Origin: Bellilinea caldifistulae
Lineage (GTDB): Bacteria > Chloroflexota > Anaerolineae > Anaerolineales > Anaerolineaceae
Assembly: GCF_001306055.1 (NCBI RefSeq)
Contig: NZ_LGHJ01000019.1
Coordinates: 30,001-62,000 of the forward strand
Length of the DNA stretch: 32,000 nt
Direction of reading: 5' to 3'
In this document: piece by piece, positions 6,429-32,000 of the stretch
How the letters are laid out: every line of letters begins with the position of its first letter
Position numbering within the stretch: the stretch's first letter is position 1
The notes under the pieces: generated by a model
Databases searched by the model: none
What the model saw: the letters and a program-made list of their open reading frames with translations, nothing else
Told to the model about the DNA's origin: nothing
Program-made: the position numbers and the translations under genes

Positions 6429-6441
6429 TTTCGCCATCAGG

Positions 6442-6512: not shown

Positions 6513-6527
6513 AATCTAACGAGCCAC

Positions 6528-6556: not shown

Positions 6557-6559
6557 GGC

Positions 6560-9213: not shown

Positions 9214-9226
9214 TTATTTTCTTAAA

Positions 9227-10299: not shown

Positions 10300-10308
10300 T
10301 CTCCTCCC

Positions 10309-11043: not shown

Positions 11044-11108
11044 AACTATCCATTATAGCAAAGCCTGCCCAGCCATGTGGCTGAAAAGAGCAGCCGCTTT
11101 TGGGGGGT

Positions 11109-13193: not shown

Positions 13194-13201
13194 TTTGGAG
13201 A

Positions 13202-13702: not shown

Positions 13703-13708
13703 CTCAAA

Positions 13709-14557: not shown

Positions 14558-14602
14558 GATATGCCCAGCATTTTAACACAACGGCCAAGCGACCAGGGTT
14601 GG

Positions 14603-15986: not shown

Positions 15987-16055
15987 TTAACCGAGATTTT
16001 TCTAAATAATTTCCTCAAACGCTGCTTCCTCACTTTTCAAGGAGTGCCTCATCTG

Positions 16056-16448: not shown

Positions 16449-16906
16449 ACACAACCTCAAATCAAAATCCTCAAAAACCAGCCCCGGCCGCCGGTACCAC
16501 TGGCAGCCTGCTCAAAGATGTTACGGTTCTGGTGGTAGAAGATAATGTGTCCAACTTCGTGTTGATTGCCCGCATGCTAGGATTTTTAGGGATTCACTGC
16601 GAGTGGAAAACCTCCGGTTATGAAGTAGTCGAATTTGCGGATACGCTCCCCCGTTTGGATCTGATTTTGATGGATATTCGCCTTCCTTATGAGGATGGCT
16701 ATTCGGCTTTTAACAAAATCCGCCAATCTGAGCGATTCAAGAATGTTCCGGTAGTAGCCGTCACCGCTGAAGCCAGTCTGGAGCAAATGAACAAAGCCCG
16801 CAAAGCCGGCTTTGACGGCTTTTTGGGTAAACCACTCGATCCCGATCGCTTCCCCGATCAAATCCAGCGCATTCTGGCAGGTGAACCCGTCTGGGAAATG
16901 GATTAA
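16445..16906 (+). CDS. Stand-alone response-regulator receiver protein, RR2
   Basis: 153 aa. A ~25-aa unstructured N-terminus is followed by a complete receiver (VVEDN, DLILMDIRLPYEDG, AVTAEA, LGKPL). Its ATGA overlaps the RR1 stop. Confidence 0.88.
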   Translation: MNTTSNQNPQKPAPAAGTTGSLLKDVTVLVVEDNVSNFVLIARMLGFLGIHCEWKTSGYEVVEFADTLPRLDLILMDIRLPYEDGYSAFNKIRQSERFKNVPVVAVTAEASLEQMNKARKAGFDGFLGKPLDPDRFPDQIQRILAGEPVWEMD

Positions 16907-16916
16907 GGATTTTCTG

Positions 16917-19900
16917 ATGACTCTTCCATCTACCCCGTCCCGAAAATCTTCTCCCACTTTCTTCAAGCGAATCAGGCATAAGGCTCTATTATTTTTGTTC
17001 TTGCTGGCAGTTTTCCCCTTACTGCTCTCGGTTGCTTCCACCGTCCTTGCAGTATCTCTGCTGCCACCTGCAACAAGCGGACAAACTCCATGGATTTTGA
17101 TTCTTTCACAACCGGTATTTTGGGCAGGATCAGGGATCAGCCTGTTAATCGCTGCAGGGATCACCTGGCTGTTCATTCAGGTGTTCATCGTGCCGATAGA
17201 AAATCTCTCCACCCAAACCGAAAAACTCGCCAATGGGGATTGGAGTCAAAAGTTCACTGTTCAAAGCAAAGATGAAATTGGGAAACTGGCCTACGCTCTG
17301 AATCTGCTTCGCAATGAACTGGGACGAATGTACCGAAAAATTGAGTTACAGGCAATTTCTCAAAAAGCCGACCCATCTTCCGGGCTGGTTGAGTCTGGTT
17401 TAGACCTCACCGTTGAAGAGGACCGCCAGGAAAACTTCGACAGTGAGTTTTCCTTCGAACCGATTGAATTTGACCGCCAAGAGGAAAACCCGTTATATCA
17501 CGCCGCTCAAAAAATCAATCACGCCGGTGAAGAATCTCAGATTAATCAAATCCTCGACGAAACTCTATCCAAAATCGATTATGTTTCGGCATTCTTTGAC
17601 ATCTACCCCAATAATTTGCGTCTGATGCATCTCCTTGACCGGCAGGTGCGGTATACCGAAAAGTCCCTGAAAGGGACCGCCATTCAGATTGAAAACCCGC
17701 AAACTTTATTTTCGGGCAAAGATTGTATTATCCTCGAACAAAAAGAGGAAATCAGTGAACTTGTCAATCTGTTCACCCTCTTTGAAAATCGCAATTGCAA
17801 TTCCATCGCAATTTTCCCTTTACTGGTCAATCAACGGGTCGTCAGGCTGTTTGTCATTGGTTCGCGTAAGCCAACCCCGCTTTCGGCGGTGAACCTACAA
17901 CCCTTTATCCATTTATCTCATACCATCAGTGCGGTACTGGAAAAACTTGGCAGCATCCGCAGCCTTCGCAGTCAAATGTCTGCTTATGAGACCCTGACCA
18001 GCATCAGTCAGGCGATCAGCAATGAATTCAGCCTGCAACCTCTTTATCAGTTGGTGCACCAAAAGGTCAGTGAACAAATTGGTGCGGATTTATCTTTTTC
18101 CTTCGCTATTTACGATCAAGCCAATCAAATTATCCAGTTCCCCTATCACTACGAAGACGGGAAAGTGACTTCCATTCCACCCTTCCCGTTGGGTGAGGGT
18201 CTGACCTCCTATATCATTCAGAATCGAAAATCGCTGCTGCTGCCCTTAAAGTTTGAACCGAAAGACTTACCCGCCAGCTGGAACGCTTATAAATACATGT
18301 ATGCGGTTTCGGATGTTGAACGAGATGCCATGCGTTTAGGCGCAAAAATTGTTGGTAAGCCTGCCAAATCCTGGCTGGGTGTACCGCTGATGGTGGGCGG
18401 CCAGGTTCTTGGTGCAATCATCGTACAGGATACCCAAAAAGAAGAACGCTTTTCGGAAAAAGACCTGATTTTACTGGAGACAATTGCCCCCCAAATCGCC
18501 ATTTCCATCCGCAATGCACAGCTGGTTGAGAACATGACCTCAACTTTGCAAGCCTACGATCAGGAACACACCCTGCTGAATGCCTTGCTGGAAAACGTGC
18601 CGGAGAAAATTTACTTCAAAGATCAGGAAGGGCGTTATCTGCGGGTTTCCAATTCCTTTATTGCCAGCCTTGGATACTCCTCAGCCAGTGAGATTACCGG
18701 CTACACTGATGAAGAATTAATCCCCGGCGAGGCTGGCAACCTCCGCCATCAGCATGACATGCGAGTCATTTCCTCTGGTATTCCTGTTGTCGGCGAAATG
18801 GTCGAATATCATGCGGAAAATGGAGAAACGCTCTGGGAGCTAGTTTCCCGTGTTCCGCTATTTTCAAATGCGGACCCCGCCAATAAAAACCCCTATGCTT
18901 TGCTGGTGATTTCTCAGGATATCACCGAGTTGAAGAGAACCGAAAACCTGAGCAACCGGCAGGCCCAACAGCTGCTCACCGCTGCCGAGATTGCCCGCGA
19001 TGTGGCTTCCTCCCTGCAGACCGAACAAGTGCTGGTCAATGCGACTAACCTGATTCGCGAACGATTTGGTTATTACCACGCTTCGGTTTTCCTTGTGGAT
19101 CCGACAGGAAAATACGCGGTGTTACATGAAGCCTCCGGCGAGATCGGGCAGAAGATGAAAGCTGCCGGACACCGTCTGGCTGTTGGCTCTCGTTCACTGG
19201 TTGGGCAGGCCGTTGCCAAAGCCGAAACGGTTGTGTCCAACAATACCCGCCAAAATCCCAATTATTACCCCAACCCCCTCCTTCCAGATACCCATTCGGA
19301 ATTGGTTGTGCCTTTGAAAACCGCAAACCGTGTGATTGGTGCGCTGGATGTGCAAAGTGACCGGGTTAATGCCTTTACAACCGAGGACATTCACACGCTG
19401 GAAATCCTGGCAGATCAGCTGGCAATGGCATTGGAAAATGCCCATCTATACGCCCATGCGCAGGAAAATCTGGTCAAACATCGCTTACTCCATCAGATGA
19501 CCACCGCCGCTTCTACCAGCACGAACCTCAGTGAAGCGATCCAGAGAACGGTTTATAACCTGCGAACATCTCTGGGCGAGGAACGTGTAGCCTTTTATCT
19601 CGCTGATCAGAGCGGCAACCTGTTCCTGCATACCGCCATCGGATTTGAGGGATTGGAAATCAATCAGATCAACATCCAGAACAGCAAACATCTGCTGGCA
19701 ATTTCCGCCCGAGACCGCTATCCGGTGCGGGTTGGTCGTCTATCGTCGGGTGAGACCAATGTGACCATCCACCCGGAAACGCAATCTGCGCTGGCTGTTC
19801 CGATTCTTTTCTCGGATGAATTGCTTGGCGTTCTCACTGTGGAATCCGAGCAGGTGGATCGCTTCGACGAAAACGATCAGGAAATCATTGGCGCACTTGG

Positions 19901-20192
19901 CGACGCACTGGGTGCGATCCTCACCAATGCCCGTCTGGTGGATCAAATTCGCCAACAAGTTGAACGACAGCGGATGCTTTATGAAATCACCAGTAAAATT
20001 CGCCGTTCGGTTGATATCGAAACCATTCTTCGTACCTCGGTAAATGAAATTAGCAGGGCAGTCGGTGCACGCAAAGCCCATATCCAGATTAATCCAGGTG
20101 TTCAAAGTTCATCACGTGAGAGCCATGCTGCTTTAACATCCATCCCCGATGAACACAACAATGGTCACCACATTGAGGATAACGGCAAATGA
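16917..20192 (+). CDS. Membrane HAMP - GAF-like - GAF - PAS - GAF - GAF protein with no recognisable output domain (GAF-1)
   Basis: ATG 16917 has AAGGA 7 nt upstream. The track's 16812 start overlaps RR2 in another frame. There are two TM helices, then HAMP (~17180-17330, KDEIGKLAYALNLL). Next come a GAF-like region (~17500-17950), GAF (~17960-18540), PAS (~18560-18940, LLENVPEKIYFKDQEGRYLRVSN) and the signature GAF (18981-19451). A further GAF follows (~19480-19960), then a terminal helix/strand fragment. It has no HisKA, GGDEF, EAL, HD-GYP, cyclase or HTH motifs. Confidence 0.85.
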   Translation: MTLPSTPSRKSSPTFFKRIRHKALLFLFLLAVFPLLLSVASTVLAVSLLPPATSGQTPWILILSQPVFWAGSGISLLIAAGITWLFIQVFIVPIENLSTQTEKLANGDWSQKFTVQSKDEIGKLAYALNLLRNELGRMYRKIELQAISQKADPSSGLVESGLDLTVEEDRQENFDSEFSFEPIEFDRQEENPLYHAAQKINHAGEESQINQILDETLSKIDYVSAFFDIYPNNLRLMHLLDRQVRYTEKSLKGTAIQIENPQTLFSGKDCIILEQKEEISELVNLFTLFENRNCNSIAIFPLLVNQRVVRLFVIGSRKPTPLSAVNLQPFIHLSHTISAVLEKLGSIRSLRSQMSAYETLTSISQAISNEFSLQPLYQLVHQKVSEQIGADLSFSFAIYDQANQIIQFPYHYEDGKVTSIPPFPLGEGLTSYIIQNRKSLLLPLKFEPKDLPASWNAYKYMYAVSDVERDAMRLGAKIVGKPAKSWLGVPLMVGGQVLGAIIVQDTQKEERFSEKDLILLETIAPQIAISIRNAQLVENMTSTLQAYDQEHTLLNALLENVPEKIYFKDQEGRYLRVSNSFIASLGYSSASEITGYTDEELIPGEAGNLRHQHDMRVISSGIPVVGEMVEYHAENGETLWELVSRVPLFSNADPANKNPYALLVISQDITELKRTENLSNRQAQQLLTAAEIARDVASSLQTEQVLVNATNLIRERFGYYHASVFLVDPTGKYAVLHEASGEIGQKMKAAGHRLAVGSRSLVGQAVAKAETVVSNNTRQNPNYYPNPLLPDTHSELVVPLKTANRVIGALDVQSDRVNAFTTEDIHTLEILADQLAMALENAHLYAHAQENLVKHRLLHQMTTAASTSTNLSEAIQRTVYNLRTSLGEERVAFYLADQSGNLFLHTAIGFEGLEINQINIQNSKHLLAISARDRYPVRVGRLSSGETNVTIHPETQSALAVPILFSDELLGVLTVESEQVDRFDENDQEIIGALGDALGAILTNARLVDQIRQQVERQRMLYEITSKIRRSVDIETILRTSVNEISRAVGARKAHIQINPGVQSSSRESHAALTSIPDEHNNGHHIEDNGK

Positions 20193-21856
20193 ACTTCATC
20201 CGCCAAATTAATCCTGCCCATACCCCTCCTCACATCTCCCGTTTAGGGGAGCTAGCCACCTGGCGCGAGCGTATCTTACAGACTACACTCCTCCTGTTTG
20301 CGCTGGCAGGCACAGTGATTTACTACCTTGCCATACAACGGGCAATCCAATATCAAGACCGCACCTCAATTTACCTGTACACCGGGGCATTGCTGGTAGC
20401 GCTTGCTTTACCCCTCCTCAGAAAATTATCCTTCAACCTGCGTACCCTGGCAATTCTGGTCGTCCTGTATGGTTTGGCCGTTCAAAATCTGGTGGTTTAC
20501 GGCGTAACACGGAACGCGGTTGCCTATGTATTGGCCATTGTTTTCATCGCTGGACTTTTATGGGGGGTACGGGCTGGTGTTTTTGCCATCCTTTTCACCT
20601 TTGCCACGGTGGTGGGGATGGGCTACGGGATGAACTACGGGGGCATGAACCAGCCATTGCAGGAAACTCTATTGAATTCAATGAGTTTCGAAAACTGGGT
20701 CAATGTGGCAATTCATTTCAGCATCGTGGGCGGTTTCATTTTGCTGTCCATCTACACTATCTTGAACGGTTTACAAAGTTCATTGTTGCAACAACGAACC
20801 TTGACAATGCAATTGAACGCTGCCCGTCTGAACCTCGAAAAAAATGTGGAAGAACGAACCACAACCCTGAAGCGCCGTTTGAACCAGATACGTACCGCAG
20901 CAGAAATTGCCAGAGCAGTCAACACCTTTCTCGATCCCGAAACACTTCTCCAACAATCGGTTGACCTGATTCAAAAAGAATTTGATCTGTATTACGCCGG
21001 TATTTTTTTAGTGGATGAGCGCGGCGAATTTGCCGTCCTCAAAGCAGGCACAGGCGAAGCCGGCCGCCAGATGATTGCCGCCGGTCACAAACTGGCGGTT
21101 GGCGGAAACTCGATGATTGGCTGGGCAACAGCACGCAAAGAACCCAAAATTGCACTGGATACCGGGGTTGAAGCCGTCCGTTTCAACAATCCTTACTTAC
21201 CCCTAACCCGTTCTGAAATGGCACTACCCATTATCAGCCGCGGTGTCTGCTTAGGTGCCCTGACCATTCAATCTACCCAACCCGAAGCCTTCGATCAAGA
21301 TGATATTCGCATTTTGATGGGTATTGCCGATTCGCTCGCGACCGCCCTGGAAAATGCCCGCCTGTTTCAGGAAACCCAACAAAATCTTGAAGAGATCCGC
21401 GCACTCAACCGGGCTTACCTCATGCAATCCTGGGAAGACGCGGTTGCCATGCACGGCAAACTTGAGTACACCTACCAAAATCCCTCCGCCATTCAAGATG
21501 GAAAAGCATCTAACCAAATCCACATCCCCTTGACCCTTCGCGATCAGGCAATTGGTAACCTGACTCTTGAATTAGGCGATAAGAGCTTGACACCCGAAGA
21601 AATGGAATTTGTGGATGGGGTAATCAATCAAACCGCCATTGCTCTGGAAAATGCCCGCTTGATTCAGGAAACCCAACGTCGGGCAATGGAAGAGCAGCGC
21701 CTCAGTGAAATGACCGCTCAATTTTCGCGCGCAAATACCGTTGACCAGATTCTCAAAGCGGCTCTCCTTGAAATCGGTCACCTTCCCAATGTGGCTGAGG
21801 TGAGCGTCCAGTTAATTCCGCCGGTTGAAGATCAAATGGAGGAAGTTGAAGGATGA
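20189..21856 (+). CDS. Polytopic membrane domain - S-helix - GAF - conserved tail protein, no output domain (GAF-2)
   Basis: 555 aa. Its ATGA overlaps GAF-1, with GAGGA 9 nt upstream. A ~210-aa multi-TM N-terminus is followed by a coiled coil with an ERT motif (20852-20860). Then come the signature GAF (20897-21367) and the tail module (21368-21856). Confidence 0.85.
   Translation: MNFIRQINPAHTPPHISRLGELATWRERILQTTLLLFALAGTVIYYLAIQRAIQYQDRTSIYLYTGALLVALALPLLRKLSFNLRTLAILVVLYGLAVQNLVVYGVTRNAVAYVLAIVFIAGLLWGVRAGVFAILFTFATVVGMGYGMNYGGMNQPLQETLLNSMSFENWVNVAIHFSIVGGFILLSIYTILNGLQSSLLQQRTLTMQLNAARLNLEKNVEERTTTLKRRLNQIRTAAEIARAVNTFLDPETLLQQSVDLIQKEFDLYYAGIFLVDERGEFAVLKAGTGEAGRQMIAAGHKLAVGGNSMIGWATARKEPKIALDTGVEAVRFNNPYLPLTRSEMALPIISRGVCLGALTIQSTQPEAFDQDDIRILMGIADSLATALENARLFQETQQNLEEIRALNRAYLMQSWEDAVAMHGKLEYTYQNPSAIQDGKASNQIHIPLTLRDQAIGNLTLELGDKSLTPEEMEFVDGVINQTAIALENARLIQETQRRAMEEQRLSEMTAQFSRANTVDQILKAALLEIGHLPNVAEVSVQLIPPVEDQMEEVEG
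21344..21380 (+). repeat. 37-nt intragenic direct repeat, copy A (end of the signature GAF in GAF-2)
   Basis: GCCCTGGAAAATGCCCGCCTGTTTCAGGAAACCCAAC matches copy B at 34 of 37 positions. It encodes ALENARLFQETQ. Confidence 0.9.
21641..21677 (+). repeat. 37-nt intragenic direct repeat, copy B (end of the half-GAF in the GAF-2 tail)
   Basis: GCTCTGGAAAATGCCCGCTTGATTCAGGAAACCCAAC encodes ALENARLIQETQ. It lies 297 nt (99 codons) downstream of copy A, in the same frame. Confidence 0.9.
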
Positions 21857-23559
21857 GTCAAAATCTCCCCACCCGCCCCTACTCCTCTTTATCATCCGCA
21901 TTCAGCCGCGGAGGTGAAGTGGATGACCTGAGTGGCGCTCTCCAGCCCATTTTGAATCTCACCAGCGTACTCAGTCTGGCCGCCTACCTGTGGATTGCCT
22001 TTCAGAACGCCCTCACCCAACAGCCCCTCCTTCCACTGGCACTAGCTCCGCTGCTCGCACTCCTCCTGCTGGTTACTTTTCGTCAAAGCTTTTCAACCTC
22101 TTTACGGACTGGCTTCCTGATAATCTTTTATTTGCTGGTTGGTTTCGCCTTATTTTTACTTGGAGAGATGCAAAGCATTGGACTTCTCCTTTTCCTGACC
22201 GCGGTTCAAGTTGCCCTTATATTCTGGAATGGAAAAGCGGGCATGACCACTTTCTTGGTTAGTCTGGCACTCATTCTGACGGCGGGTATTTCTCTCCATT
22301 TTGGGTTGCTGAAACCATTTGGTCTGGGAACTCAATCCCTTGAACTCGTACCTTTCATCGGATTGATTGCGGCTTTCGTCCTTTCCAATTGGGTTTTGGC
22401 CATGATTTCCGGACACCTTCTCAAGGTTTACAACAGGGCAGCTTCTTCTGAAAAAGAACTCTCCCAAATTCTGGATGAAGAAAGAAAAAACCTGGAAGCG
22501 CGCATCGAAGAACGCACCCGGCTACTTACCCGGCAAACCAGCCTGATGGAAACCGCCGGTGAGATTGCCCACCAAATCTCAATGGAAACCAGTCAGGAAA
22601 ATCTTTTCCGTAATACCATTCAACTGATTCGCGACCGTTTGGGATACTATCACGCTGGCATTTTCCTCATGGACGATACAGATGAGTATGCCGTACTGGT
22701 TTCTGCGCTGGGAGAAGCGGGTGAGAAGATGCTCGCCCAAGGTCACCGCCTTAAAAAAGGCGAGGAAGGTATTGTCGGAAACGTGGTTGCCCGTGGAGAG
22801 GCGCGCATTGCTTTGGACGTCGGCAAGGATGCAGTCCACTTCAAGAATCCGCTCTTGCCTTACACCCGCTCTGAAATTGCCCTTCCCATCAAGATTGGAG
22901 ATCGAGTGCTCGGCGCATTAGATATTCAATCTACCGAGCCGGAAGCGTTCTCACAGGTGGATATTCAATCGCTTCAAATTATTGCCAATCAACTGGCAGT
23001 GGCATTGGAACGCATCCGACTGATTGACCAGCTTCAACAAACTGTAGCCGATTTGGAAAGCGGGTACCGCACCGAAACCCGCAAGTCCTGGCGGATGTAC
23101 ATCCGCAGTAGTCGTAAAACCCGCGGTTTTCGCTATGATCCTGATCGTAAGCAAGTTGAACCAATTCCCGTTGTGAAAAATCCTTCACAATCTTTATCGG
23201 ATGCCCAAACGGTACAGGTGCCGCTGCACAGCCGAGGTGAAGTGATCGGGGTGCTCAATATTAAGTTCAAAGGCGGGCAGCCGTCTCCTGAAATTCAGCG
23301 GCTTCTTCACACAACTGCAGAACGGTTGGGTTCAGCTCTGGAAACCGCCCGTTTGTTGGAGGAATTACAACTCCGTGCCGAGAGAGAACATCTGGTAGGC
23401 GATCTTGCCACACAGGTACGCTCCAGTACCGATTTCGAACAAATTCTTAAGACAACCGCCCAGCAAATCAGACAAAAACTGGGTTTACGCGAAGTAACTG
23501 TCCAGATTCTTCCTTCGCAAGAGATACAGCATGGGGATTATCCACTGGAGGTTTCATGA
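21853..23559 (+). CDS. Polytopic membrane domain - S-helix - GAF - conserved tail protein, no output domain (GAF-3)
   Basis: 568 aa. Its ATGA overlaps GAF-2, with GGAGGA upstream. The plan matches GAF-2: ERT at 22510-22518, signature GAF at 22555-23025, tail at 23026-23559. Confidence 0.85.
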   Translation: MSQNLPTRPYSSLSSAFSRGGEVDDLSGALQPILNLTSVLSLAAYLWIAFQNALTQQPLLPLALAPLLALLLLVTFRQSFSTSLRTGFLIIFYLLVGFALFLLGEMQSIGLLLFLTAVQVALIFWNGKAGMTTFLVSLALILTAGISLHFGLLKPFGLGTQSLELVPFIGLIAAFVLSNWVLAMISGHLLKVYNRAASSEKELSQILDEERKNLEARIEERTRLLTRQTSLMETAGEIAHQISMETSQENLFRNTIQLIRDRLGYYHAGIFLMDDTDEYAVLVSALGEAGEKMLAQGHRLKKGEEGIVGNVVARGEARIALDVGKDAVHFKNPLLPYTRSEIALPIKIGDRVLGALDIQSTEPEAFSQVDIQSLQIIANQLAVALERIRLIDQLQQTVADLESGYRTETRKSWRMYIRSSRKTRGFRYDPDRKQVEPIPVVKNPSQSLSDAQTVQVPLHSRGEVIGVLNIKFKGGQPSPEIQRLLHTTAERLGSALETARLLEELQLRAEREHLVGDLATQVRSSTDFEQILKTTAQQIRQKLGLREVTVQILPSQEIQHGDYPLEVS

Positions 23560-26501
23560 ATATCGGATACCAGAGCAATTTGATGAGGATAATCTCGCAA
23601 GAAGGCGTCGAGCCAGCGTATCGCCGTGATCGCTTTGCTGCCGGCGTGGCTCGGCTTGCTGCCATTATTCTTGGAATTACAAGTGTCATCTTCCTGCTAA
23701 CATCCTTCAATCAACCTTACTGGCAAATCTTTACTCTTACATTTTTTAGCGCGGGCGGCTTTCTTGCATCTCTTTTCGCCGCTACTTTTCCTGAGAAAGA
23801 AGCCGCCGAAAAGCGCACCTACCTGCTTGCTCCAACGCTTTCAATAAGTGCCATTGCTTTCAGTGCTCTCATTGTCAATGTCGCTTTGCCTTTGGCAATC
23901 ATCCTCTTTTTGGTATTGACTCTTCTGGTCACCGGTTCCCTTGAAGGTCAACGAAGGGATACCGGTATCTCTCTGGCTTTCTTTTCAGCACTGACGGCTG
24001 TCATCGCCGGCAACTTTTTACCTGTCTCGCAAGTCAGGTTGCCGCAGATTGAATTGTTCATTCCGGTATTGTTGGGCATCTTAATGATGGTTTATATCAT
24101 CTTGTTGATGCTGGAAGTTCTTTCCGCCACATTACGCATCAAACTGCTGACAATTTCACTGGCAATTGCCATTGTCCCATTACTGGTCATCTCGATTATC
24201 AATTCGCGTTTCTTTCAGGATGCTCTGCGTAATCAGACCAATCAAGTCCTTCTTCTTGCAGCCCAGCAGACTGCTTCTAAAGTCGATTCGTTCTTTGAAG
24301 AAAACAAACAATCCATTGCCAGTGAAGCTTCTCTGGCTGTATTTTCGAACTACCTTTCGCTTTCGCCTTTGTACCGCCCTAACAGTACCCAGGAAGTGGC
24401 AGCTACTCTGACCTTGCGTTCGTTATCTTCCCGTCAACAGCGCTTTCTGCGTTCTTATGGTTTGGTTGATGCGGAAGGCAAAGCCGTTCTGGATATTAAT
24501 CCTCTTCAAATCGGGCAAGACGAATCTCAAAACGAGTACTTTACACTCCCGCTCACAACTGGGCAGGTTTATGCCTCACCTGTAATTTTTGACCCGAGAT
24601 CTCGGAATGGATATATCTATTTCTCAAGCCCGGTACGGAATCAACGCCAGCAGGTAATCGGTGTTTTGCGCGCTAAATTTGACGCCCTGATCTTGCAGGA
24701 ATTACTGGAGCAAGAGGTAAATTTGGTGGGCATCCGTTCCTACCCAATCTTGCTCGATGAGAATTATTTGCGTCTGGCCGATACGCTCATTCCCAACAGT
24801 ATTTATAAACTGGTCATGCCGCTGCCTTCGGACGTGATGGGAAAATTGATTCAATCCAATCGTGTTCCGAATTTACCACTTTACGAAATGAGCACCAATG
24901 ATGTTGCCCTCTCGGCAGGTTTGGAAAACTATTTGAACTCCCCCTTCTTTACTGCAGAATTTCACCCGGATGATCCCAGCCATCCTGAAATTGGTGCCAT
25001 CACTCGCTTGAAAACCAACCCGTGGTATGTGGTCTTTGTCCGCGAACAGACTACTTTTGCCGGCTTAGTCGCACGGCAAGGCCGCTTATCCATCTTAATT
25101 TCTACCTTGATTGCTGGGTTGGTGGGGTTAATTGCCAGCGTGGTTTCCGGCTCGTTTAGCCGGCCGATTGTTCGTTTGCAGCAAACTGCAGAGCTGATCT
25201 CCTCCGGTGAGCTGGATGCACAGGCGCAGGTAGAAACCGGTGATGAGATTGGAAAACTGGCTCAGGCATTCAATTTTATGACCAACCAGTTGAAGAACCT
25301 GATCAACACGCTGGAAGACCGGGTTCGAGAGCGAACCCGTGAACTCGCCCAACAAAATGAGGCATTGCTCTACAGGACACGCCAGTTGCAAACCGTTTCG
25401 GATGTAGCCCGCGGTATCGTTTCGACCCAAAAACTGGAAAGTCTGCTGAACCAGCTCACCATCCTGATCAGCGAACGATTTGGGTTTTATCACGTGGGCG
25501 TTTTCTTGTTGGACGAACAGAAGGAATACGCCGTTCTGCGAGCAGCAAACTCAGAAGGCGGTAAACGGATGCTTGCTCGCCAGCACCGGCTCAAGGTCGG
25601 TCAGGTTGGTATTGTGGGTTATGTAACCGGTAGCGGAGAAGCCCGTATCGCCACTGATGTTGGTAAAGACGCAGTCTTCTTCAACAATCCCGATTTACCT
25701 CAAACCCGATCCGAAATGGCACTCCCCCTCAAAGCAAACAACGAGGTGATCGGCGCTCTGGATGTGCAAAGTACAATACCCAACGCCTTCACCCAGGAAG
25801 ACGTTGAATTATTCAGCATCCTGGCTGATCAAATTGCCATCGCCATCCTCAATAACCGGCTCTACACCGAAACCCTGCAAGCGCTGGAGGAATCTCAACG
25901 CGTTCACCGGCTTTACCTGCGTCAGGAATGGAGCAAAGAAGCCGGAGAACGACCGGTAATTGGCTATCGGGCAACACCTCATGGTTTGATTGCATTGGAA
26001 GAGATGCGCGAACAGGAAATTTCCGATGTGCTGCTCTCCGGAGATGTTATCGTCCGCCCGGCAAAGGAAAGTCAACCGGCGGCATTATCGGTTCCGGTCA
26101 GGCTGAGAGGTGAAACCGTTGGGGTGATTCACATTGAAGATGATCAAATTGCCGATCGGGTTTGGAGTGAAGAAGAAATTCGTTCCATTCAGGCAGTTGC
26201 TGATCAGGTTGGGCTGGCTCTGGAAAATGCGCGTTTGCTGGAAAAGACCATCCGTCGCGCTGAGCGCGAGCGCCGCGTTTTGGAAATCACCAGCAAGATC
26301 CGCTCCACAAATGACCCGAACACGATGATCGAGATTGCCATTCAAGAATTGAAACGCACTTTGAATGCCAGCCATGCTCAAGTCATATGGAAAGATACTG
26401 GTGAAGAAACCACACCTCCACAACAGCAGAGCAATGAACCATCCACTCTACAAAAACGGAATAACGGATCAAACGGTTCGAGCAGGAAGGGGCAGGTATG
26501 A
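23556..26501 (+). CDS. Multi-TM - Cache-like extracytoplasmic domain - HAMP - S-helix - GAF - conserved tail protein, no output domain (GAF-4)
   Basis: 981 aa. Its ATGA overlaps GAF-3, with GGAGG 5 nt upstream. About 6 N-terminal TM helices are followed by a ~290-aa Cache-like region (24215-25080, ..GLVDAEGKAVLD..DESQNEYF..GYIYFSSPV..VIGVLRAKF). Then come a TM, HAMP (25158-25300, GDEIGKLAQAFNFM), ERT (25329-25337), the signature GAF (25395-25865) and the tail (25866-26501). Confidence 0.85.
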   Translation: MNIGYQSNLMRIISQEGVEPAYRRDRFAAGVARLAAIILGITSVIFLLTSFNQPYWQIFTLTFFSAGGFLASLFAATFPEKEAAEKRTYLLAPTLSISAIAFSALIVNVALPLAIILFLVLTLLVTGSLEGQRRDTGISLAFFSALTAVIAGNFLPVSQVRLPQIELFIPVLLGILMMVYIILLMLEVLSATLRIKLLTISLAIAIVPLLVISIINSRFFQDALRNQTNQVLLLAAQQTASKVDSFFEENKQSIASEASLAVFSNYLSLSPLYRPNSTQEVAATLTLRSLSSRQQRFLRSYGLVDAEGKAVLDINPLQIGQDESQNEYFTLPLTTGQVYASPVIFDPRSRNGYIYFSSPVRNQRQQVIGVLRAKFDALILQELLEQEVNLVGIRSYPILLDENYLRLADTLIPNSIYKLVMPLPSDVMGKLIQSNRVPNLPLYEMSTNDVALSAGLENYLNSPFFTAEFHPDDPSHPEIGAITRLKTNPWYVVFVREQTTFAGLVARQGRLSILISTLIAGLVGLIASVVSGSFSRPIVRLQQTAELISSGELDAQAQVETGDEIGKLAQAFNFMTNQLKNLINTLEDRVRERTRELAQQNEALLYRTRQLQTVSDVARGIVSTQKLESLLNQLTILISERFGFYHVGVFLLDEQKEYAVLRAANSEGGKRMLARQHRLKVGQVGIVGYVTGSGEARIATDVGKDAVFFNNPDLPQTRSEMALPLKANNEVIGALDVQSTIPNAFTQEDVELFSILADQIAIAILNNRLYTETLQALEESQRVHRLYLRQEWSKEAGERPVIGYRATPHGLIALEEMREQEISDVLLSGDVIVRPAKESQPAALSVPVRLRGETVGVIHIEDDQIADRVWSEEEIRSIQAVADQVGLALENARLLEKTIRRAERERRVLEITSKIRSTNDPNTMIEIAIQELKRTLNASHAQVIWKDTGEETTPPQQQSNEPSTLQKRNNGSNGSSRKGQV

Positions 26502-27280
26502 CTTATTTTATTTCCATCACAAACGAAAAAGGCGGAGTTGCCAAAACGACTACAGCGCTCTCTCTGGGTGCAGCCCTGGTTGAAGCGGGGCGGCAGGTGT
26601 TGCTGGTTGATTTGGACGCTCAGGCCAATCTAACCCTCGCACTGGGAACGGATCCCCTCAACGGACATGCAACCATTCTGAACGCCGTTGCCGATCAATC
26701 TCCCATCCATAAACTATGGCGGGAAACCGGTATTCCGGGTTTATTTTTTATCCCTTCCAATCATGATATGGGCTATAGCGAACGAATTTTGCCCGCCCGT
26801 CCCGAATATGAATTTACCCTGAAAAAGGCGTTTTCCGAAATCTCGCTGCCGTTTGATTATGTAATATTTGACTGTCCCCCCTTTTTGGGTTCCGTGGTGA
26901 TTAATGCCCTGACCGCGTCGCAATTACTCATCATTCCTACGCAGGCAGAGTACTTTTCCATTTATGCCTTGAAAAACATGATGAGTTTAATCCGCCGCAT
27001 TCGCTCGCAAACCAATCCCGATCTCACCTACCGGCTTTTACTCACCATGTTTGATCGCCGCAACCGCATCCATCGAACCCTGAGTGAACAGTTACGTGCA
27101 AGTTTTGGCAATGGTGTGCTGGAAACCGTCATCATGGTGGATACCCGTCTGCGGGAAAGTTCCATTGCCGGTCTGCCGATTATCTACCATGCTCCCAAAA
27201 GCCGTTCTGCTTTGCAATACCGCGAATTAGCCCAGGAGATCCTGCAATATGTCGAAAAAGCAATTGCTCAACCGGCTTGA
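26498..27280 (+). CDS. ParA/MinD-family P-loop ATPase (orphan; no ParB in the window)
   Basis: 260 aa. It has the deviant Walker A (NEKGGVAKTTT), Walker A' (LLVDLDAQANLT) and Walker B (YVIFDCPP). Its ATGA overlaps the GAF-4 stop. Confidence 0.88.
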   Translation: MTYFISITNEKGGVAKTTTALSLGAALVEAGRQVLLVDLDAQANLTLALGTDPLNGHATILNAVADQSPIHKLWRETGIPGLFFIPSNHDMGYSERILPARPEYEFTLKKAFSEISLPFDYVIFDCPPFLGSVVINALTASQLLIIPTQAEYFSIYALKNMMSLIRRIRSQTNPDLTYRLLLTMFDRRNRIHRTLSEQLRASFGNGVLETVIMVDTRLRESSIAGLPIIYHAPKSRSALQYRELAQEILQYVEKAIAQPA

Positions 27281-30200
27281 CCATCTCTTTGCCAACATTA
27301 CGGAAGATGCCGCCGAGCAGATTCCTCCCCCTCCACCCCCACCGACGGTTCTGCCACAATGGAAGTGGGAAACAGACGAAAGCGGCTGCATTATTTTCTG
27401 TGAAGATGCCATAAAGGTTTGCCTGGGTTACTCACCGGATGAGATCATCGGTCAACCCTTATCTTCATTTGGGTTGAGCAGTGAATCGGTTACTGCATTG
27501 CAAAATGCCTTAAATCAGGATGTGTTTCCCATTGATTTGTCCGTCGTATTTCAATCCAAAAGCGGTAACCCTGTACCAGCCCGTCTGACCATCTTCAAAA
27601 AAGGCGCATTAAACGGCGAGAAGGGCGGTTTTCGTGGTTTTACCCAACCCTTGTTAGAGAGCAAGCCGGTAAAACCTCAATCAGAGAATGAGGACATTCC
27701 GAAAACCCAATTTGCCAGCCAGCAAACAACCCCAAGCGCAAGAAAAACGCCAGTCAGGGCTCCGATTCAGCCAAAAGCCCAAAAAGCCGCCCCTCCTTCG
27801 GTCAGACCTCGTTCAAAATCTATTCTTGAAAACCCGGCCATCATCACCGTTCCTTTGAAAAAGAGGCAACAAGAAATCGGCATTCTTGAAATCATGGCCG
27901 ATGGCGTACAACGCCGTTGGAGCGAAGAAGAATTACTACTGGTACAGGAAGTTGCCAATCAACTTGGCCTTGCAATCGAAAATGCAGAATTGTATGCTGC
28001 TGTTCAACAGGAACTCAACGAGAGAGTTCGCGCCGAACAAGAGATTTTACGCCGCAACAAAGATCTCGCTGCTCTGAATGAGATTGGTCAGCAAATCTCG
28101 CGTCTGACCGATAAAGATCAGATCATTGCCACCTTACAGCAAGCGCTTGTGCAACTGTTGAACTGCCGCAATTTGACCATTGCGATGCTGGATTCCGATC
28201 AGCAAACCCTGACTTTTCCCGTGCATACCGTTGATTCAAACTCTCAACCCTTACCCCCCAGGCCACTTGGAGATGACCTGATCAGTTATGTCGTTCACAG
28301 CCGGGAGGTTTTACGCATCAATCGGGATGTGGCAAACGCCTTATCTGCCAGAAAAATTATCCCCGATCAACCCATTCCTGCTGCTCTTCTTGCCGTCCCA
28401 ATGGTCACCGCCGAAAAGGTTATGGGTGTCATTTACCTTCAAGAGTTTGAGCAGGGTGCTGGTTTTTCAGATATTCAAGCAGACTTGCTTTCCACAATTG
28501 CCTCTCAGGTAGCCATTGCTCTGGCAAACGCCAATCTCTTCCAGGAAGTTACCACCGCCCTGCAAGCCATCGAAAAACGTGAACGCTATCAGGCTAACGT
28601 GGCTCAGGCAGTTGCCACATTGACTGAAAGCGGCGTTCGCGGTATTCCCGCCATGTTGGGCTTCCTTGGCGAAGCAGCCCAATGCGATTACATCTACTTT
28701 GCCAGTGCACGGGAAGACGAACAGGGCTTGCACTGGATCGTTACCGACCATTGGATTGCCCCTCAAATCCGCCCCGGTTCTGATCTGGTCGTACGGCAGC
28801 CGCTTTCTGCCGCTTTGTTCCCTAACTGGGCCTCAGCGTTGAAAGAGAAAGGCTGGTTTTCCGGTCAGCCTGAAGATTTCGAAGGGCGTGAACGCGAGTT
28901 CCTCCGTCAGCGCGGTATTCACTCCATCCTTTTACTGGCTGTACCGGGTAATCGCGATATTCCCAGTTTTATCGCATTCGAACAAAGGACTGCCCGAGCC
29001 TGGAAAAATGATGAAATCGGCGTGTTACAGGTGGCGGCAGATGCACTGGCGAACACGTTCGTCCGCCAAGACCTGCTGGAACAATTGCGATCCTCGCTGG
29101 ATGAGACCGAAACGCTGTATAAAATCAGCCATAATCTGGCTTTGGCGGGTGATTACCACGAGATGGTGCGCGCCATTGCCGGCGGGATCACCGATGAAAA
29201 GGTGAATCGCATTGTATTGGTTCTGTTTGAACAATCCGATCCATTAAGTACCCCACTCCTGCGAATTGCTGCAACGTGGCACTCAGGAAGAGGTGCCCAT
29301 CCCCCGTTGATTGGTACCGAATTGGATTACGCCACCTACAATCCGCTGGTTTCAATTGAAACCCCCGCTTTTTATAACGATATCTATGATTTAGGAATTT
29401 TGCCCGCCGCCCGTTCGGCACTGGAAGAGTTAAATGTACGCTCGATTGCGGTTTTACCCCTTTGGGCTGCTCGCAAACAATTAGGTGCTTTACTCTTTCT
29501 TTCAGAAGGGTTGCATTACTTTACGATACGTGAGATGCGCACCTTCCCGCCACTCGTGGATCAGATGGCTACCGCCATCGAGAACATGCGCCTGTTCGAA
29601 CAAACTCAGGCAGCCCTTGCCGAAACCGAACTTTATTACCGGATCAGCAGCGGCATTGCGCAAGCAGGTGATGCCAACGACTTGGTTGATCTGGTAATGA
29701 CCGAAATTCTGCCAGCCAACGCAGAACGGGTGTCCATCATCCAGATGTTCAACGACCCAAACGGTGTGCCGCTGGAATTTGAGGTCGTTGCCAGCACCTC
29801 GGTCAGCGGTAACACGGAACTGGCTAATATTCGCCAATCCATCAATCATTTACCGATTCTCAAGGAATTGCGGGAAGAACCGATTGTATTGGATAATCTT
29901 GAAAATAGCCGGTTGGATTCCCTTTCTAAACAAACCCTGAAACAGATGGGGGTTGCTTCGGGTATTTTTGTGCCATTGTTCAGCGCCGGAAAAATTGTTG
30001 GTATTCTGGCAGCCACTTCCAGTCAACCCGCCAGTTACGACATGGAAGAGGTACGTGTGCTGAATGTGGCGAGCAGTGGTGTGGCAGTAGCGTTAGAAAG
30101 ACAACGCCTTCTCAAAGAAGCCCAGCGCCGCGCCCTTGAACTTCAAGCTGCTGCCGAAATTGCCCGCGATACCACGAGCGTCCTTTCTCAAGATGAATTG

Positions 30201-32000
30201 CTCAACCGGATCGTCAATCTCCTTCGCGAGCGATTCGGTTTTTACCACACTGCCATCTTTTTGGTCAACGACGAAGGCACCCACGCCATTATTCAGCAAG
30301 CCAGCGGAATGGGCGCCCAGGAAGTCATGCGAAGCAATCAAAAGATTGCGGTCGGCTCCCGCTCGATTATTGGCAAAGTAACCGATACTGGCAGTCCGGT
30401 GCTGGTCAATAATGTTGCTGAAAGCCCTATCTACCTTCCCAATCCGCACCTGCCCGAAACACGCTCGGAGTTGGGCATTCCCCTGCGTATTGCTGACCGT
30501 ATCATCGGCGCCTTGGATATTCAATCCGAACGTCCGAATGCCTTTCAGGAAGACGATCTGGGAGTGTTCCAGATTCTGGCTGATCAGATTGCAGTGGCCA
30601 TTGAAAATGCCCGCGCCTACGAGCTGGCTCAAAAAGCCTATCAGGAAATGCGCGAAGTTGACCGCTTGAAGTCTCAATTCCTCGCCAATATGAGCCATGA
30701 ATTGCGAACACCCCTCAATTCGATTATTGGCTTTTCGCGGGTCATCCTCAAAGGGATTGATGGCCCGATCAACGACCTCCAGAGACAGGATCTCACCTCG
30801 ATCTACAACTCCGGTCAGCACTTGCTCGGCCTGATCAATGATGTCCTTGATCTTTCCAAAATCGAAGCCGGAAAAATGGAGCTGCAATTCGAGGAAGTGA
30901 ACATTGCTGATTTGGTCAATTCTGTCATGTCCACGGCTGTGGGGTTGGTAAAAGACAAGCCCATCAAACTCAATCATCAAGTGGAACCTGATTTACCGGT
31001 TGTAATTGCCGATAACACCCGCATCCGTCAGGTTTTGCTCAACTTTATCTCCAATGCGGCAAAATTCACCGATGCCGGCTCCATCACCGTGGAAGCCAGG
31101 AAATCTCTCAGCCCTGATAACAAACCTGAGGTCATGGTCATTGTTACCGACACAGGCCAGGGAATTGACGAGAAAGGACGGGAAAAATTATTCCTGCCGT
31201 TCTCTCAAGTGGATGATTCTCCCACCCGCAAAACTGGTGGAACCGGCCTGGGTCTGTCCATTTCCCGCTCCTTTATTGAACTACATGGCGGTCGGATTGG
31301 CTTGTTATGGAGTGAAGTGGGTAAAGGCAGCGCCTTCTACTTCACCCTGCCGGTTCAGCAGCCAGCCAAACAGACCAGCGAACTTAAATCGGATGAGATT
31401 TTATCCAAAACCGAAAAAGTGATTCTGGCCATTGACGATGACCCGCAAGTCATAAAACTATACGAACGCTTTTTACAAACCAGTGGTTACAAAGTCGTTC
31501 CGCTCACTCAGCCAAAACTTGCCGTTGAAAAAGCCAAATCTCTCAAACCTTTTGCAATCACCCTGGATATTATGATGCCTGAGGTAGATGGTTGGCAGGT
31601 CATTCACGCCTTGAAGAATGATCCCCAAACTAAAGATATTCCGGTCATTATTTGCAGCATTCTGGAAGAGGAAGAAAAAGGATTTAGTCTGGGCGCAGCC
31701 GATTATCTGGTTAAACCTTTCCTTCAGGAAGATCTGGTCAATGCGGTTTACCGCCTGAACCGCCAAAACCGAATTCATCGCATTCTGGTTGTGGATGATT
31801 CGCTGGAAGATCAGCGTCTGATTCAGAAAACACTTGCGGAGCAAAAGAATTTTGAGATCTTCGCCGCATTCGATGGTGAAAAAGCCTTGCAGATGATTCA
31901 CAATATCAAACCAGATGCGGTCATTTTGGATCTCTTCATGCCGGGATTGGATGGTTTTCAGTTATTGGAGAAAATTCGAACCGCTCCCGAATACCGTAAC
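27249..32000 (+). CDS. Soluble PAS / multi-GAF hybrid sensor histidine kinase with two C-terminal receiver domains (3' end outside the window)
   Basis: This gene is NOT in the supplied ORF track. I translated the frame of nt 27249 by hand to nt 32000 and found no stop. An in-frame TAG lies at 27228-27230, AGGAG at 27234-27238, and the ATG at 27249. Domains: PAS-like (~27350-27620), half-GAF (27843-27995), 4 GAF/GAF-like modules (~28080-30110) and the signature GAF (30150-30620). The kinase core has the H-box MSHELRTPLNSI (His codon 30696-30698), N-box VLLNFISNAAKFT, G1 DTGQGI and G2 GGTGLGLSIS (to ~31360). REC1 has Asp codon 31566-31568 and REC2 has Asp codon 31929-31931. I saw no TM segment. 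Confidence 0.9.
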   Translation, partial: MSKKQLLNRLDHLFANITEDAAEQIPPPPPPPTVLPQWKWETDESGCIIFCEDAIKVCLGYSPDEIIGQPLSSFGLSSESVTALQNALNQDVFPIDLSVVFQSKSGNPVPARLTIFKKGALNGEKGGFRGFTQPLLESKPVKPQSENEDIPKTQFASQQTTPSARKTPVRAPIQPKAQKAAPPSVRPRSKSILENPAIITVPLKKRQQEIGILEIMADGVQRRWSEEELLLVQEVANQLGLAIENAELYAAVQQELNERVRAEQEILRRNKDLAALNEIGQQISRLTDKDQIIATLQQALVQLLNCRNLTIAMLDSDQQTLTFPVHTVDSNSQPLPPRPLGDDLISYVVHSREVLRINRDVANALSARKIIPDQPIPAALLAVPMVTAEKVMGVIYLQEFEQGAGFSDIQADLLSTIASQVAIALANANLFQEVTTALQAIEKRERYQANVAQAVATLTESGVRGIPAMLGFLGEAAQCDYIYFASAREDEQGLHWIVTDHWIAPQIRPGSDLVVRQPLSAALFPNWASALKEKGWFSGQPEDFEGREREFLRQRGIHSILLLAVPGNRDIPSFIAFEQRTARAWKNDEIGVLQVAADALANTFVRQDLLEQLRSSLDETETLYKISHNLALAGDYHEMVRAIAGGITDEKVNRIVLVLFEQSDPLSTPLLRIAATWHSGRGAHPPLIGTELDYATYNPLVSIETPAFYNDIYDLGILPAARSALEELNVRSIAVLPLWAARKQLGALLFLSEGLHYFTIREMRTFPPLVDQMATAIENMRLFEQTQAALAETELYYRISSGIAQAGDANDLVDLVMTEILPANAERVSIIQMFNDPNGVPLEFEVVASTSVSGNTELANIRQSINHLPILKELREEPIVLDNLENSRLDSLSKQTLKQMGVASGIFVPLFSAGKIVGILAATSSQPASYDMEEVRVLNVASSGVAVALERQRLLKEAQRRALELQAAAEIARDTTSVLSQDELLNRIVNLLRERFGFYHTAIFLVNDEGTHAIIQQASGMGAQEVMRSNQKIAVGSRSIIGKVTDTGSPVLVNNVAESPIYLPNPHLPETRSELGIPLRIADRIIGALDIQSERPNAFQEDDLGVFQILADQIAVAIENARAYELAQKAYQEMREVDRLKSQFLANMSHELRTPLNSIIGFSRVILKGIDGPINDLQRQDLTSIYNSGQHLLGLINDVLDLSKIEAGKMELQFEEVNIADLVNSVMSTAVGLVKDKPIKLNHQVEPDLPVVIADNTRIRQVLLNFISNAAKFTDAGSITVEARKSLSPDNKPEVMVIVTDTGQGIDEKGREKLFLPFSQVDDSPTRKTGGTGLGLSISRSFIELHGGRIGLLWSEVGKGSAFYFTLPVQQPAKQTSELKSDEILSKTEKVILAIDDDPQVIKLYERFLQTSGYKVVPLTQPKLAVEKAKSLKPFAITLDIMMPEVDGWQVIHALKNDPQTKDIPVIICSILEEEEKGFSLGAADYLVKPFLQEDLVNAVYRLNRQNRIHRILVVDDSLEDQRLIQKTLAEQKNFEIFAAFDGEKALQMIHNIKPDAVILDLFMPGLDGFQLLEKIRTAPEYRN

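Follow-up and report, generated by a model that had tools for sequence, protein, structure and literature searches.

GAF domains (PF01590, PF13185 and PF13492) and the helical junctions of tandem GAF sensors are the closest described relatives of the element examined here, a conserved C-terminal tail carried by four sensor proteins that are encoded in one operon of Bellilinea caldifistulae, a member of the Anaerolineae. The operon lies in a 32,000-nucleotide stretch of contig NZ_LGHJ01000019.1 (positions 30,001 to 62,000, forward strand), which we call the window and to which all coordinates refer. Throughout, G1 to G4 denote the four sensor open reading frames (ORFs), (a), (b) and (c) the parts of their tails, and "signature GAF" the GAF subtype that precedes the tail. 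Canonical GAF domains are the sole structural neighbours of the tail, its part (b) being homologous to their β5-β6-α5 and its part (c) to their α1-β1. Neither piece, however, is whole: (a) and (b) together lack α1'-β1-β2-α2, G2 and G3 also lack most of the pocket half, and the template modelling (TM) score of the tail against solved single-domain GAFs is below 0.5. In its working the tail appears to come closest to the helical junctions within tandem GAF and GAF-PHY sensors, ending in a stub. Such junctions (SyB-Cph1 8w26, Cph2 4bwi, PDE2A 1mc0/3ibj and the dual-sensor kinase 6oap) are among its Foldseek matches, and their continuous α5-linker-α1 helix is the same element as the one predicted in the tail; but here the chain ends after β1 of the downstream domain, and the stub is the conserved C-terminus of a family.

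Larger systems offer further comparisons. The multi-GAF sensor histidine kinases of the Anaerolineae have the signature GAF in common with G1-G4, some of them with an (a)(b) module after it, and they also contain (c)-type internal GAF starts. Most of these kinases go on to further GAFs and a kinase core, whereas G1-G4 stop at the stub, without HisKA or HATPase. ParA-positioned chemoreceptor arrays are known from Rhodobacter (PpfA/TlpT) and Vibrio (ParC). The resemblance is a functional analogy only: here too several receptors with varied sensors and a common C-terminal helical module would serve one soluble kinase accompanied by a ParA-like ATPase. The operon differs in that domain scans find no MCPsignal, CheA or CheW, and chemoreceptor tips are more uniform than its paralogous tails, which are only 26-28% identical. 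In the RetS-GacS pair, signalling proteins associate with one another via homologous dimerisation helices. By analogy, a sensor that is non-cognate or has no output of its own would influence a kinase via homologous helical segments, here a (b)-linker-α1'β1 unit shared by sensors and kinase; but this shared unit is GAF-derived and not a DHp domain.

The tail and the family that carries it

A large family of membrane-anchored GAF sensors, restricted to the Anaerolineae and devoid of enzymatic output, is defined by the tail, its C-terminal module. The simplest description of the tail is two truncated repeats of a GAF array: a headless GAF followed by the first helix-turn-helix-strand of the next GAF. 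The sensors and their tails are laid out in the window as follows, HMM standing for hidden Markov model and "model" for a predicted structure.

16812-20192, plus strand: G1 ORF, with HAMP, GAF, PAS, GAF and GAF
19950-20096, plus strand: G1 tail (c) stub, residues 1047-1095 ((c)-segment HMM; architecture bMbbc)
20189-21856, plus strand: G2 ORF, a MASE11 membrane domain (residues 25-195, Pfam), then GAF
20933-21370, plus strand: signature GAF of G2, residues 249-394 (Pfam GAF_2 at residues 249-388)
21371-21481, plus strand: G2 tail (a), Trp helix YLMQSWEDA and LEYTYQ ((a)-segment HMM, residues 395-431)
21515-21667, plus strand: G2 tail (b), β-hairpin and α5 of a headless GAF (Pfam GAF_2 positions 83-136 only; model)
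21668-21817, plus strand: G2 tail (c), predicted spine-helix continuation, turn, α1' helix and terminal strand motif VAEVSVQL ((c)-segment HMM, residues 494-543)
21853-23559, plus strand: G3 ORF, a membrane region, then GAF
22588-23025, plus strand: signature GAF of G3
23029-23508, plus strand: G3 tail, with (a) at 23029-23142, (b) at 23206-23361 and (c) at 23362-23508 (HMMs; architecture Mbabc)
23556-26501, plus strand: G4 ORF, with dCache, HAMP and GAF
25434-25865, plus strand: signature GAF of G4
25869-25979, plus strand: G4 tail (a), Trp helix (model)
25980-26081, plus strand: middle of the G4 tail, GYRA hairpin, short helix and strand (model; hhalign puts GYxY on β3 of the signature GAF)
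26082-26243, plus strand: G4 tail (b), β5-β6-α5 (Pfam GAF 58-133 for the tail; model)
26244-26393, plus strand: G4 tail (c) stub ((c)-segment HMM, residues 897-946; model)

In the architecture strings, Mbabc stands for signature GAF-(b)-(a)-(b)-(c) and Mbbc for signature GAF-(b)-(b)-(c). An initial annotation, made from the letters of the DNA, had proposed that G2, G3 and G4 share an ordered (a)-(b)-(c) tail and that G1 ends in the same (c) fragment, and both proposals hold. All the motifs that it quoted are present in the ORFs named, within a few nucleotides of the positions given. In G2, YLMQSWEDA starts at 21416, LEYTYQ at 21461 and IHIPLTL at 21518, and ALENARLIQE ends at 21670 (earlier placed at 21677), the stop codon being 21854-21856. 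In G3, RKSWRMYI starts at 23080 and VQVPLHS at 23212, and ALETARLLEE ends at 23364; in G4, YLRQEWSKEA starts at 25914 and LSVPVRL at 26085, and ALENARLLEK ends at 26246. In G1, the stub with the motif MLYEITSKIRR (from 19974) comes after a complete third GAF that has its own (b) at 19788-19940. The likeness of the pieces greatly exceeds chance: BLASTP aligns the G2 and G4 tails over (a), (b) and (c) at E = 2e-16 and the (c) segments of G1 and G4 at E = 4e-9, and the pairwise identity of the paralogous tails in the window is only 26-28%. Low-complexity Asn/Gly-rich ends such as NNGSNGSSRKGQV and HNNGHHIEDNGK lie beyond (c), in G4 (26394-26498, up to the stop codon at 26499-26501), in G1 (about 20100-20189) and in related tails; an NGxNG-like motif occurs in the aligned C-terminal columns of about 37% of 117 homologous tails.

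The annotation had further read (b) as the last strand-strand-helix of a GAF and (c) as its first helices and strand, and profile comparisons agree on both counts. Using hhalign, tail positions 33-129 (GYxY to the end of (b)) align with positions 75-172 of the signature GAF at a probability of 99%, and (c) with its positions 1-56 (α1 helices and β1) at 71-88%; the Trp helix of (a) has no counterpart in this alignment with the signature GAF. In a sequence profile search of the PDB (E values 2e-13 to 1e-4), (b) matches the C-termini of GAFs (DosT 2vzw, residues 94-148, and DevS), (c) the N-termini of cyanobacteriochrome GAFs (6bhn 3-46, 2lb5 11-59 and 6uv8 5-56), and (b)+(c) residues 146-239 of 8w26 (a "GAF-PHY domains" entry), at the junction that follows its first GAF. 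The GAF homology of (b) and (c) is found by profile-profile comparison and by the PDB profile search alike.

No complete domain emerges from the Pfam matches of the isolated tails. The G2 tail scores 18-21.5 bits, under all cut-offs, over profile positions 81/83-129/136 (GAF_2 83-136 of 136); the G3 tail scores 25.9 bits for PF01590, at positions 93-133 of 133 only; and the G4 tail 39.3 bits, at GAF positions 58-133 only. With 41-76 of about 133 positions covered, the tails fall short of a complete GAF. Neither the tail nor the family is represented in NCBIfam, and no Pfam model covers the whole module. In the literature on GAF permutation or swapping, on MASE11 and on Anaerolineae GAF proteins we found no account of the tail module. 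A HisKA/DHp-like reading of (c) was rejected: there is no HisKA match at E ≤ 10, and the return helix has only 13-15 residues.

The annotation would have been refuted by a tail confined to this genome, but the tail is strongly conserved elsewhere. An initial search gave 8 relatives at 45-87% identity and a profile search 232; identity among orthologues is 43-87% for the G2 tail and about 82-83% for the G4 tail. For 114 of 122 metagenomic homologues the best match covers essentially the entire tail profile, and the matches listed stop 0-41 residues short of the C-terminus. When one genome per species was scanned with a profile from an 11-sequence tail alignment, 79 loci were found; almost all carry Anaerolineae, Anaerolineales, Chloroflexia or Chloroflexota in their titles (one just "bacterium"). 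Together with one metagenome contig these make 80 loci, in which 312 ORFs end at most 60 residues from (c). The stub-ended ORFs typically form same-strand arrays of 3-6 paralogues, mostly of the Mbabc or Mbbc architecture. We define the family by a signature GAF, a second (b), and then a (c) within 60 residues of the C-terminus, a definition that covers G2, G3 and G4 (Mbabc) as well as G1 (bMbbc).

Across 117 tails the Trp of (a) is invariant, G-[YF]-x-Y is conserved, and (b) has a near-invariant P, R, G and ALENARL. Segment (c) is fully occupied and as conserved as (b) through a strand pattern of alternating hydrophobic residues, A-x-[IV]-x-[LW], past which (tail position 175) conservation collapses into the low-complexity, often NG-rich ends. 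The columns of (b) and (c), the last strand included, carry 2-4 bits across tails that are 25-50% identical. Between α5 of the signature GAF and the following (b) lie 42-99 residues in about 235 members; in about 30 others, which have a full GAF, the gap is 111-135 residues. At 48, 60 and 72 residues, the spacings in G2, G3 and G4 cannot accommodate the initial two thirds of a GAF.

An exhaustive search of representative proteins with the tail profile serves to describe architecture, not to count true tails: any GAF-GAF junction matches (b)+(c), and very large multi-GAF proteins therefore dominate the results. There are 62,152 matches at E ≤ 1e-3, and 8,423 representatives reach E < 1e-30. The best 150 representatives (P0123-P0272) have 1098-3952 residues, 5-20 matched stretches and up to 18 HMM-detected GAF segments. 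Among these 150, 43 end in (c), and most of the others have 180-850 residues after the last (b), which by length would be enough room for a kinase core. Some large representatives have a (c)-type start on every repeat ("cbcbcb" patterns). Some kinases carry a signature GAF-(a)-(b) block internally, with ordinary GAFs after it, and fused proteins running from sensor and signature GAF through (a)(b) and further GAFs to a kinase also exist. Internal (c) segments are followed by a (b) 59-78 residues later in 61 of 66 cases, and are therefore the start of a complete GAF; with three more in which the (b) is farther away, 64 of the 66 belong to full GAFs. Minimal (c)+(b) units are rare (2 of 66 internal (c) segments have a close (b)): in P0188 (C-terminal 330 residues) and P0169 (residues 700-960) a (c)-type α1'-β1 is followed after about 27-43 residues by GYxY and (b). 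By their sequences these two units look like GAFs without β2/α2, showing that a reduced module can own an α1'-β1.

Predicted structure and residue couplings

Two AlphaFold2 inputs were used, G2 residues 225-555 with a 100-sequence alignment (mean predicted local distance difference test, pLDDT, 87.6) and the G4 tail alone with 52 trimmed homologues (pLDDT 85.9); the local values below are means over 10-residue blocks. The signature GAF of G2 has the canonical GAF fold in the model, with Foldseek TM scores of 0.78-0.85 against the GAFs of PtsP and free-methionine-R-sulfoxide-reductase (fRMsr). Its α5 runs uninterrupted through the Trp segment (H146-198) and is followed by a short helix, a β-hairpin (strands 218-226 and 229-238) and a continuous helix of 46 residues, H245-290, which comprises α5 of (b), the linker and the start of (c). 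The model ends with a 13-residue helix (294-306) and then coil; the G2 tail has one hairpin only, plus helices, and no five- or six-strand sheet. In the G4-tail model, H2-28, E33-37, E40-44, H50-58 and E62-64 (block means 77-96 over residues 1-70) lead to the β5-β6 hairpin (E72-80, E83-92) and to a continuous helix, H102-146 (block means 90-98 over residues 101-150). After it comes a return helix, H151-165, and the conserved terminal strand is left as coil at block means of 54-64. In both models, a short antiparallel helix follows a turn at the end of the long helix.

On these models the (a)+(b) part of the G4 type is a reduced five-strand GAF-like module without α1'-β1-β2-α2, unlike an ordinary full GAF, and that of G2 is a predicted hairpin plus helices, smaller than the G4 type. 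Foldseek matches the G4-tail model only to GAF-containing structures in the PDB (best E = 1e-3), and against single-domain GAF chains the target-normalised TM score is 0.40-0.46 over 86-126 columns. By fold superposition, as with profile coverage, neither tail amounts to a complete GAF. As modelled, the tail is GAF-derived yet matched to no complete known domain, which is what the annotation had suspected.

Mean-field direct coupling analysis (DCA) was applied to 362 stub-ended tails (about 325 effective sequences), taking the top 80 couplings with near-invariant columns removed. Couplings are enriched inside (c), 5.8 fold for α1'/β1, 5.0 fold for linker/β1 and 3.8 fold for linker/α1', and 2.3 fold between the (b) sheet and its own α5. 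Not one of the 170 possible pairs between the (b) sheet and β1 of (c) is in the top 80, and there is no enrichment for α5/β1 (0.5 fold) or α5/α1' (0.3 fold, 1 of 522 pairs). The pattern weakly favours a stub that packs on itself, and it counts only as moderate negative evidence on permutation; the alignment is small, subfamily signatures can mimic or inflate coupling inside (c), and only block-level enrichment is used. Individual pairs were dropped, several being artefacts that involve near-invariant columns (W22, G86, E120 and E161), and the helix registers implied by the α5/linker and the α5/α1' pairs, which clash by about 10 residues, were set aside.

The operon and the head of its kinase

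The tailed sensors stand in a plus-strand operon of tightly packed genes, whose domains were assigned with Pfam and from the translations. Its other members and the parts of the kinase are:

16044-16448, plus strand: single-domain response regulator, the start of the operon, with an ATGA overlap with the next gene
16445-16906, plus strand: single-domain response regulator (translation; receiver-domain matches in the syntenic locus L001)
26498-27280, plus strand: ParA/MinD-like P-loop ATPase (NCBIfam ParA_partition, 1e-29, below the cut-off)
from 27249, running past the window end, plus strand: hybrid histidine kinase with PAS, five Pfam GAF matches, HisKA, HATPase_c and two receivers
27249-27299, plus strand: Lys-rich N-terminal peptide of the kinase, MSKKQLLNRLDHLFANI (translation; amphipathic)
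27366-27602, plus strand: PAS domain of the kinase (PAS_9, residues 41-118)
27636-27836, plus strand: Pro/Lys-rich (also Ala-rich) linker after the PAS
27843-27992, plus strand: headless (b) of the kinase, β-hairpin and α5 (Pfam GAF 88-133 only), then a linker helix to the first complete GAF at 28113-28529
30186-31997, plus strand: C-terminal part of the kinase, signature GAF 30186-30614, HisKA 30669-30872, HATPase_c and two receivers (Pfam)

Stop and start codons overlap as ATGA at five consecutive junctions: between the two response regulators (16445), G1 and G2 (20189), G2 and G3 (21853), G3 and G4 (23556), and G4 and the ParA-like gene (26498). The 3' end of the latter overlaps the kinase start by 32 nucleotides. 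The ATGA overlaps suggest translational coupling across the operon. The longest G1 ORF begins at a TTG and overlaps the response-regulator gene by 95 nucleotides (16812-16916); from the sequence, the ATG at 16917 (MTLPSTPSRK...), just past the regulator stop, is the more plausible start. In the syntenic locus L001, CbiA, AAA_31 and MipZ matches fall at the position equivalent to the ParA-like gene. Immediately upstream of the operon, on the minus strand, lies a cell-shape and division cluster (8086-15664) in the order FtsW/RodA-like, MinD-like, MinC, PBP2-type transpeptidase, a small ORF (possibly MreD), MreC and MreB. Also on the minus strand, two paralogous class I aminoacyl-tRNA synthetases of the Glu/Gln type, 561 and 502 residues long, lie side by side at 4694-8068 and differ in their anticodon-binding domains.

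All four sensors have hydrophobic N-terminal segments, and the kinase has no transmembrane-like segment outside its GAF strands. Pfam finds no HisKA or HATPase_c in G1-G4 at E ≤ 0.1, nor in the tails alone at E ≤ 10, and no MCPsignal in G1-G4 either; G4, for example, has just dCache and HAMP beside its GAF. Both HisKA and HATPase_c are in the neighbouring kinase. By these scans G1-G4 belong neither to the sensor histidine kinases nor to the methyl-accepting chemotaxis proteins. The annotation had called the tail the only candidate output of these proteins, and Pfam reveals no other candidate output domain in G1-G4. One GAF subtype, with the conserved motif FNNPxLPxTRSExAxP, is common to all four and the kinase; this signature GAF directly precedes HisKA in the kinase and directly precedes the tail in the sensors.

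The kinase itself carries a (b)-type piece near its N-terminus, which had been described as close to the G4 copy. ITVPLKKRQ...AIENAELY is at 27843-27995, exactly where the annotation had placed it; BLASTP gives 46% identity with the (b) of G4 (E = 3e-16), and within the window the head unit of the kinase scores highest against the G4 tail. The head (b) is conserved in orthologous kinases, after a linker that is variable in length and composition, and some of these kinases retain a GYxY-like remnant before it that the window kinase has lost. Head and neighbouring tail (b) segments compare at 86.7 within a locus and 81.6 across loci (permutation p = 0.014), a difference confounded by two clades and not used as support. 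In all of ten fused kinases, the tail-(b) class gives the top score for the (b) of the (a)(b) block, the kinase-head class being second in 5. For the next (b), the top class is the second-(b) class of the kinases in 7 of 10, the tail-(b) class in the other 3, and the head class in none. By these scores the stub and the head of the kinase do not derive from two halves of a single ancestral GAF; to judge from the sequences, sensors and kinase have in common a (b)-linker-α1'β1 unit rather than complementary halves of one domain.

Partners of ParA often have a Lys-rich N-terminal peptide followed by a disordered linker. An M[SP]KK...RLxxLF peptide with a disordered Pro/Ala-rich stretch heads at least 23 ParA-adjacent kinases from other Anaerolineae loci, which continue with a headless (b), complete GAFs and a kinase core. 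The Lys-rich N-terminal peptide of the window kinase looks like a ParA-partner peptide, and in that case the kinase would be spatially positioned by the ATPase. A ParA-like match is found in 36 of 80 related loci, adjacent to a kinase in most of those, and the order of response regulator, G2-like sensor, G4-like sensor, ParA-like gene and kinase recurs in at least 15 loci.

Readings of the tail and their consequences

We favour, with a probability of about 55%, the reading that the tail is a GAF-derived, non-ligand-binding spine-and-cap module which couples the output-less sensors to the kinase. In (a)+(b), the lost α1'-β1-β2-α2 would have been replaced by the invariant-Trp helix continuing α5 of the signature GAF, and all that would remain is the strand region around GYxY, a variable remnant and β5-β6-α5; the ligand-pocket half is gone and ligand binding is therefore unlikely. 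In (c), α5 would extend as an inter-domain spine helix, turn, and add the α1' and β1 of a would-be next GAF before the chain ends. A small sheet would ride on a helix of about 45 residues that ends in a helix-turn-helix(-strand) stub. This helix may well be a dimeric spine, with (c) as its cap, which would relay conformational change from the MASE11, dCache-HAMP and HAMP-PAS sensors and from the signature GAF as far as the C-terminal tip, where the capped end would show a conserved surface to a partner. The likeliest partner would be the soluble hybrid kinase that is translationally coupled and associated with the ParA-like ATPase. The spine of this kinase opens with the same (b)-linker-α1'β1 unit, and the sensors would act on the kinase most simply by pairing homologous spine units.

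Several points weigh against this proposal. The homology of the pieces, their predicted fold, terminal position and family-wide conservation, the synteny and the gene overlaps are established; dimerisation, kinase contact and signalling are the steps that we infer beyond them. A shared docking surface should be more uniform than paralogous tails at 26-28% identity; set against the 43-87% among the closest G2-type orthologues, this divergence suggests paralogue-specific rather than generic contacts. AlphaFold2 leaves the conserved terminal strand unplaced, and part of (c) probably needs a partner or an oligomeric state. The DCA, with its few effective sequences and confounding subfamily signatures, lends weak support to a self-contained stub, and the sheet order and packing of the reduced module are read from secondary-structure strings only.

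An unlikely alternative, but the one that survives best, is that a GAF split between chains is completed in trans: the (c) stub of one sensor would dock on the headless (b) of another chain, either the kinase N-terminus or the next paralogue, rebuilding a GAF-like core and physically chaining the sensors to the kinase. The operon has as many stubs as headless modules, four of each (stubs on G1-G4, headless modules on G2, G3, G4 and the kinase), its genes appear translationally coupled, and the terminal strand is conserved yet unplaced in the monomer predictions. Moreover, P0188 and P0169 carry (c) right before GYxY, a short spacer and (b) in cis, which means that α1'-β1 can serve a reduced module. 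The couplings speak against such docking, with no pair between the terminal strand and the (b) sheet in the top 80 (DCA sees same-family contacts only), as do the fused kinases, where the next (b) never sides with the head class and is best with the second-(b) class in 7 of 10, and the internal (c) segments, nearly all of which (64 of 66) are part of full GAFs.

We consider it improbable that (a)+(b) is an ordinary small GAF with a diverged first half and (c) a mere C-terminal helix extension. The α-β-β-α-β-β-β-α order of the G4-tail model is superficially GAF-like, and every Foldseek match is a GAF, at a probability of 1.00. Those matches, however, reach target-normalised TM scores of just 0.40-0.46; hhalign puts the first hairpin on β3 and not on β1-β2 and leaves the Trp helix unmatched; G2 has only 48 residues before (b) and a model without a five- or six-strand sheet; and (c) aligns specifically with α1-β1 of solved GAFs.

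Even less probable is the circularly permuted GAF that the annotation had put forward, in which (a)+(b) and (c) of one chain would pack as a single domain with β1 beside β6. Its attraction is that the order GYxY-middle-(b)-(c) is a circular permutation of the rare in-cis (c)-GYxY-middle-(b) of P0188 and P0169. Duplication plus truncation is a general route to permuted domains and would yield the tail's arrangement, and (c) does partly supply, by hhalign, the pieces absent from (a)+(b). But the predicted α5-linker-α1 is one straight helix of 45-46 residues, modelled with high confidence, which holds (c) a domain-length away from the (b) sheet; the terminal strand is unpaired in the models; couplings are 0 fold for (b) sheet/β1 and 0.5 fold for α5/β1; β2-α2 would still be absent; and the (c) of G1 comes after a complete GAF, with no gap to fill. 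The compact permuted fold thus fails on helix, strand and couplings, although, coming from a monomer prediction and a small alignment, this evidence is moderate rather than decisive.

Least probable of all is that the tail is non-functional debris of a truncated, decaying multi-GAF gene: the middle of (a)+(b) does vary much in length (spacing 42-99 residues) and the window kinase head has lost a GYxY part that some orthologues keep, but 312 ORFs from 79 genomes share one end point, the (b) and (c) columns hold 2-4 bits through the last strand at 25-50% identity, and orthologues are 43-87% (G2 tail) and about 82-83% (G4 tail) identical.

Returning to the preferred spine-and-cap module, its wider setting can be sketched only tentatively. 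The operon might be an undescribed receptor-array-like machine, in which the output-less G1-G4 plug into one ParA-positioned soluble hybrid kinase through GAF-derived connectors; we regard this as doubtful, with a minor chance of being right. The (b)-spine-(c) unit of a sensor may pair with the homologous unit of the kinase head, or the α1'-β1 stub may complete a partner's headless GAF remnant, the split domain then being a protein-protein connector. The four stubs and four headless modules, the unplaced conserved strand and the putative translational coupling are compatible with such a machine.

The description of the tail and of its large family is solid; its interpretation as a rearranged fold is not supported by the computations made here. 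Hundreds to thousands of Anaerolineae proteins are annotated just as "GAF domain-containing protein", and databases see the tail as a partial GAF. Its recognition separates output-less sensors from kinases in Anaerolineae genomes and flags "second GAF" calls that are probably unable to bind ligand. It also raises the question of the route from output-less sensors to a kinase, given the arrays of such sensors beside a ParA-like ATPase and a single soluble kinase. Should the tail be no more than a spine cap, it would represent ordinary domain erosion in repeat arrays; but if truncated domain pieces do act as connectors, this would be an unusual wiring of two-component signalling and a possible design principle for engineered sensors.

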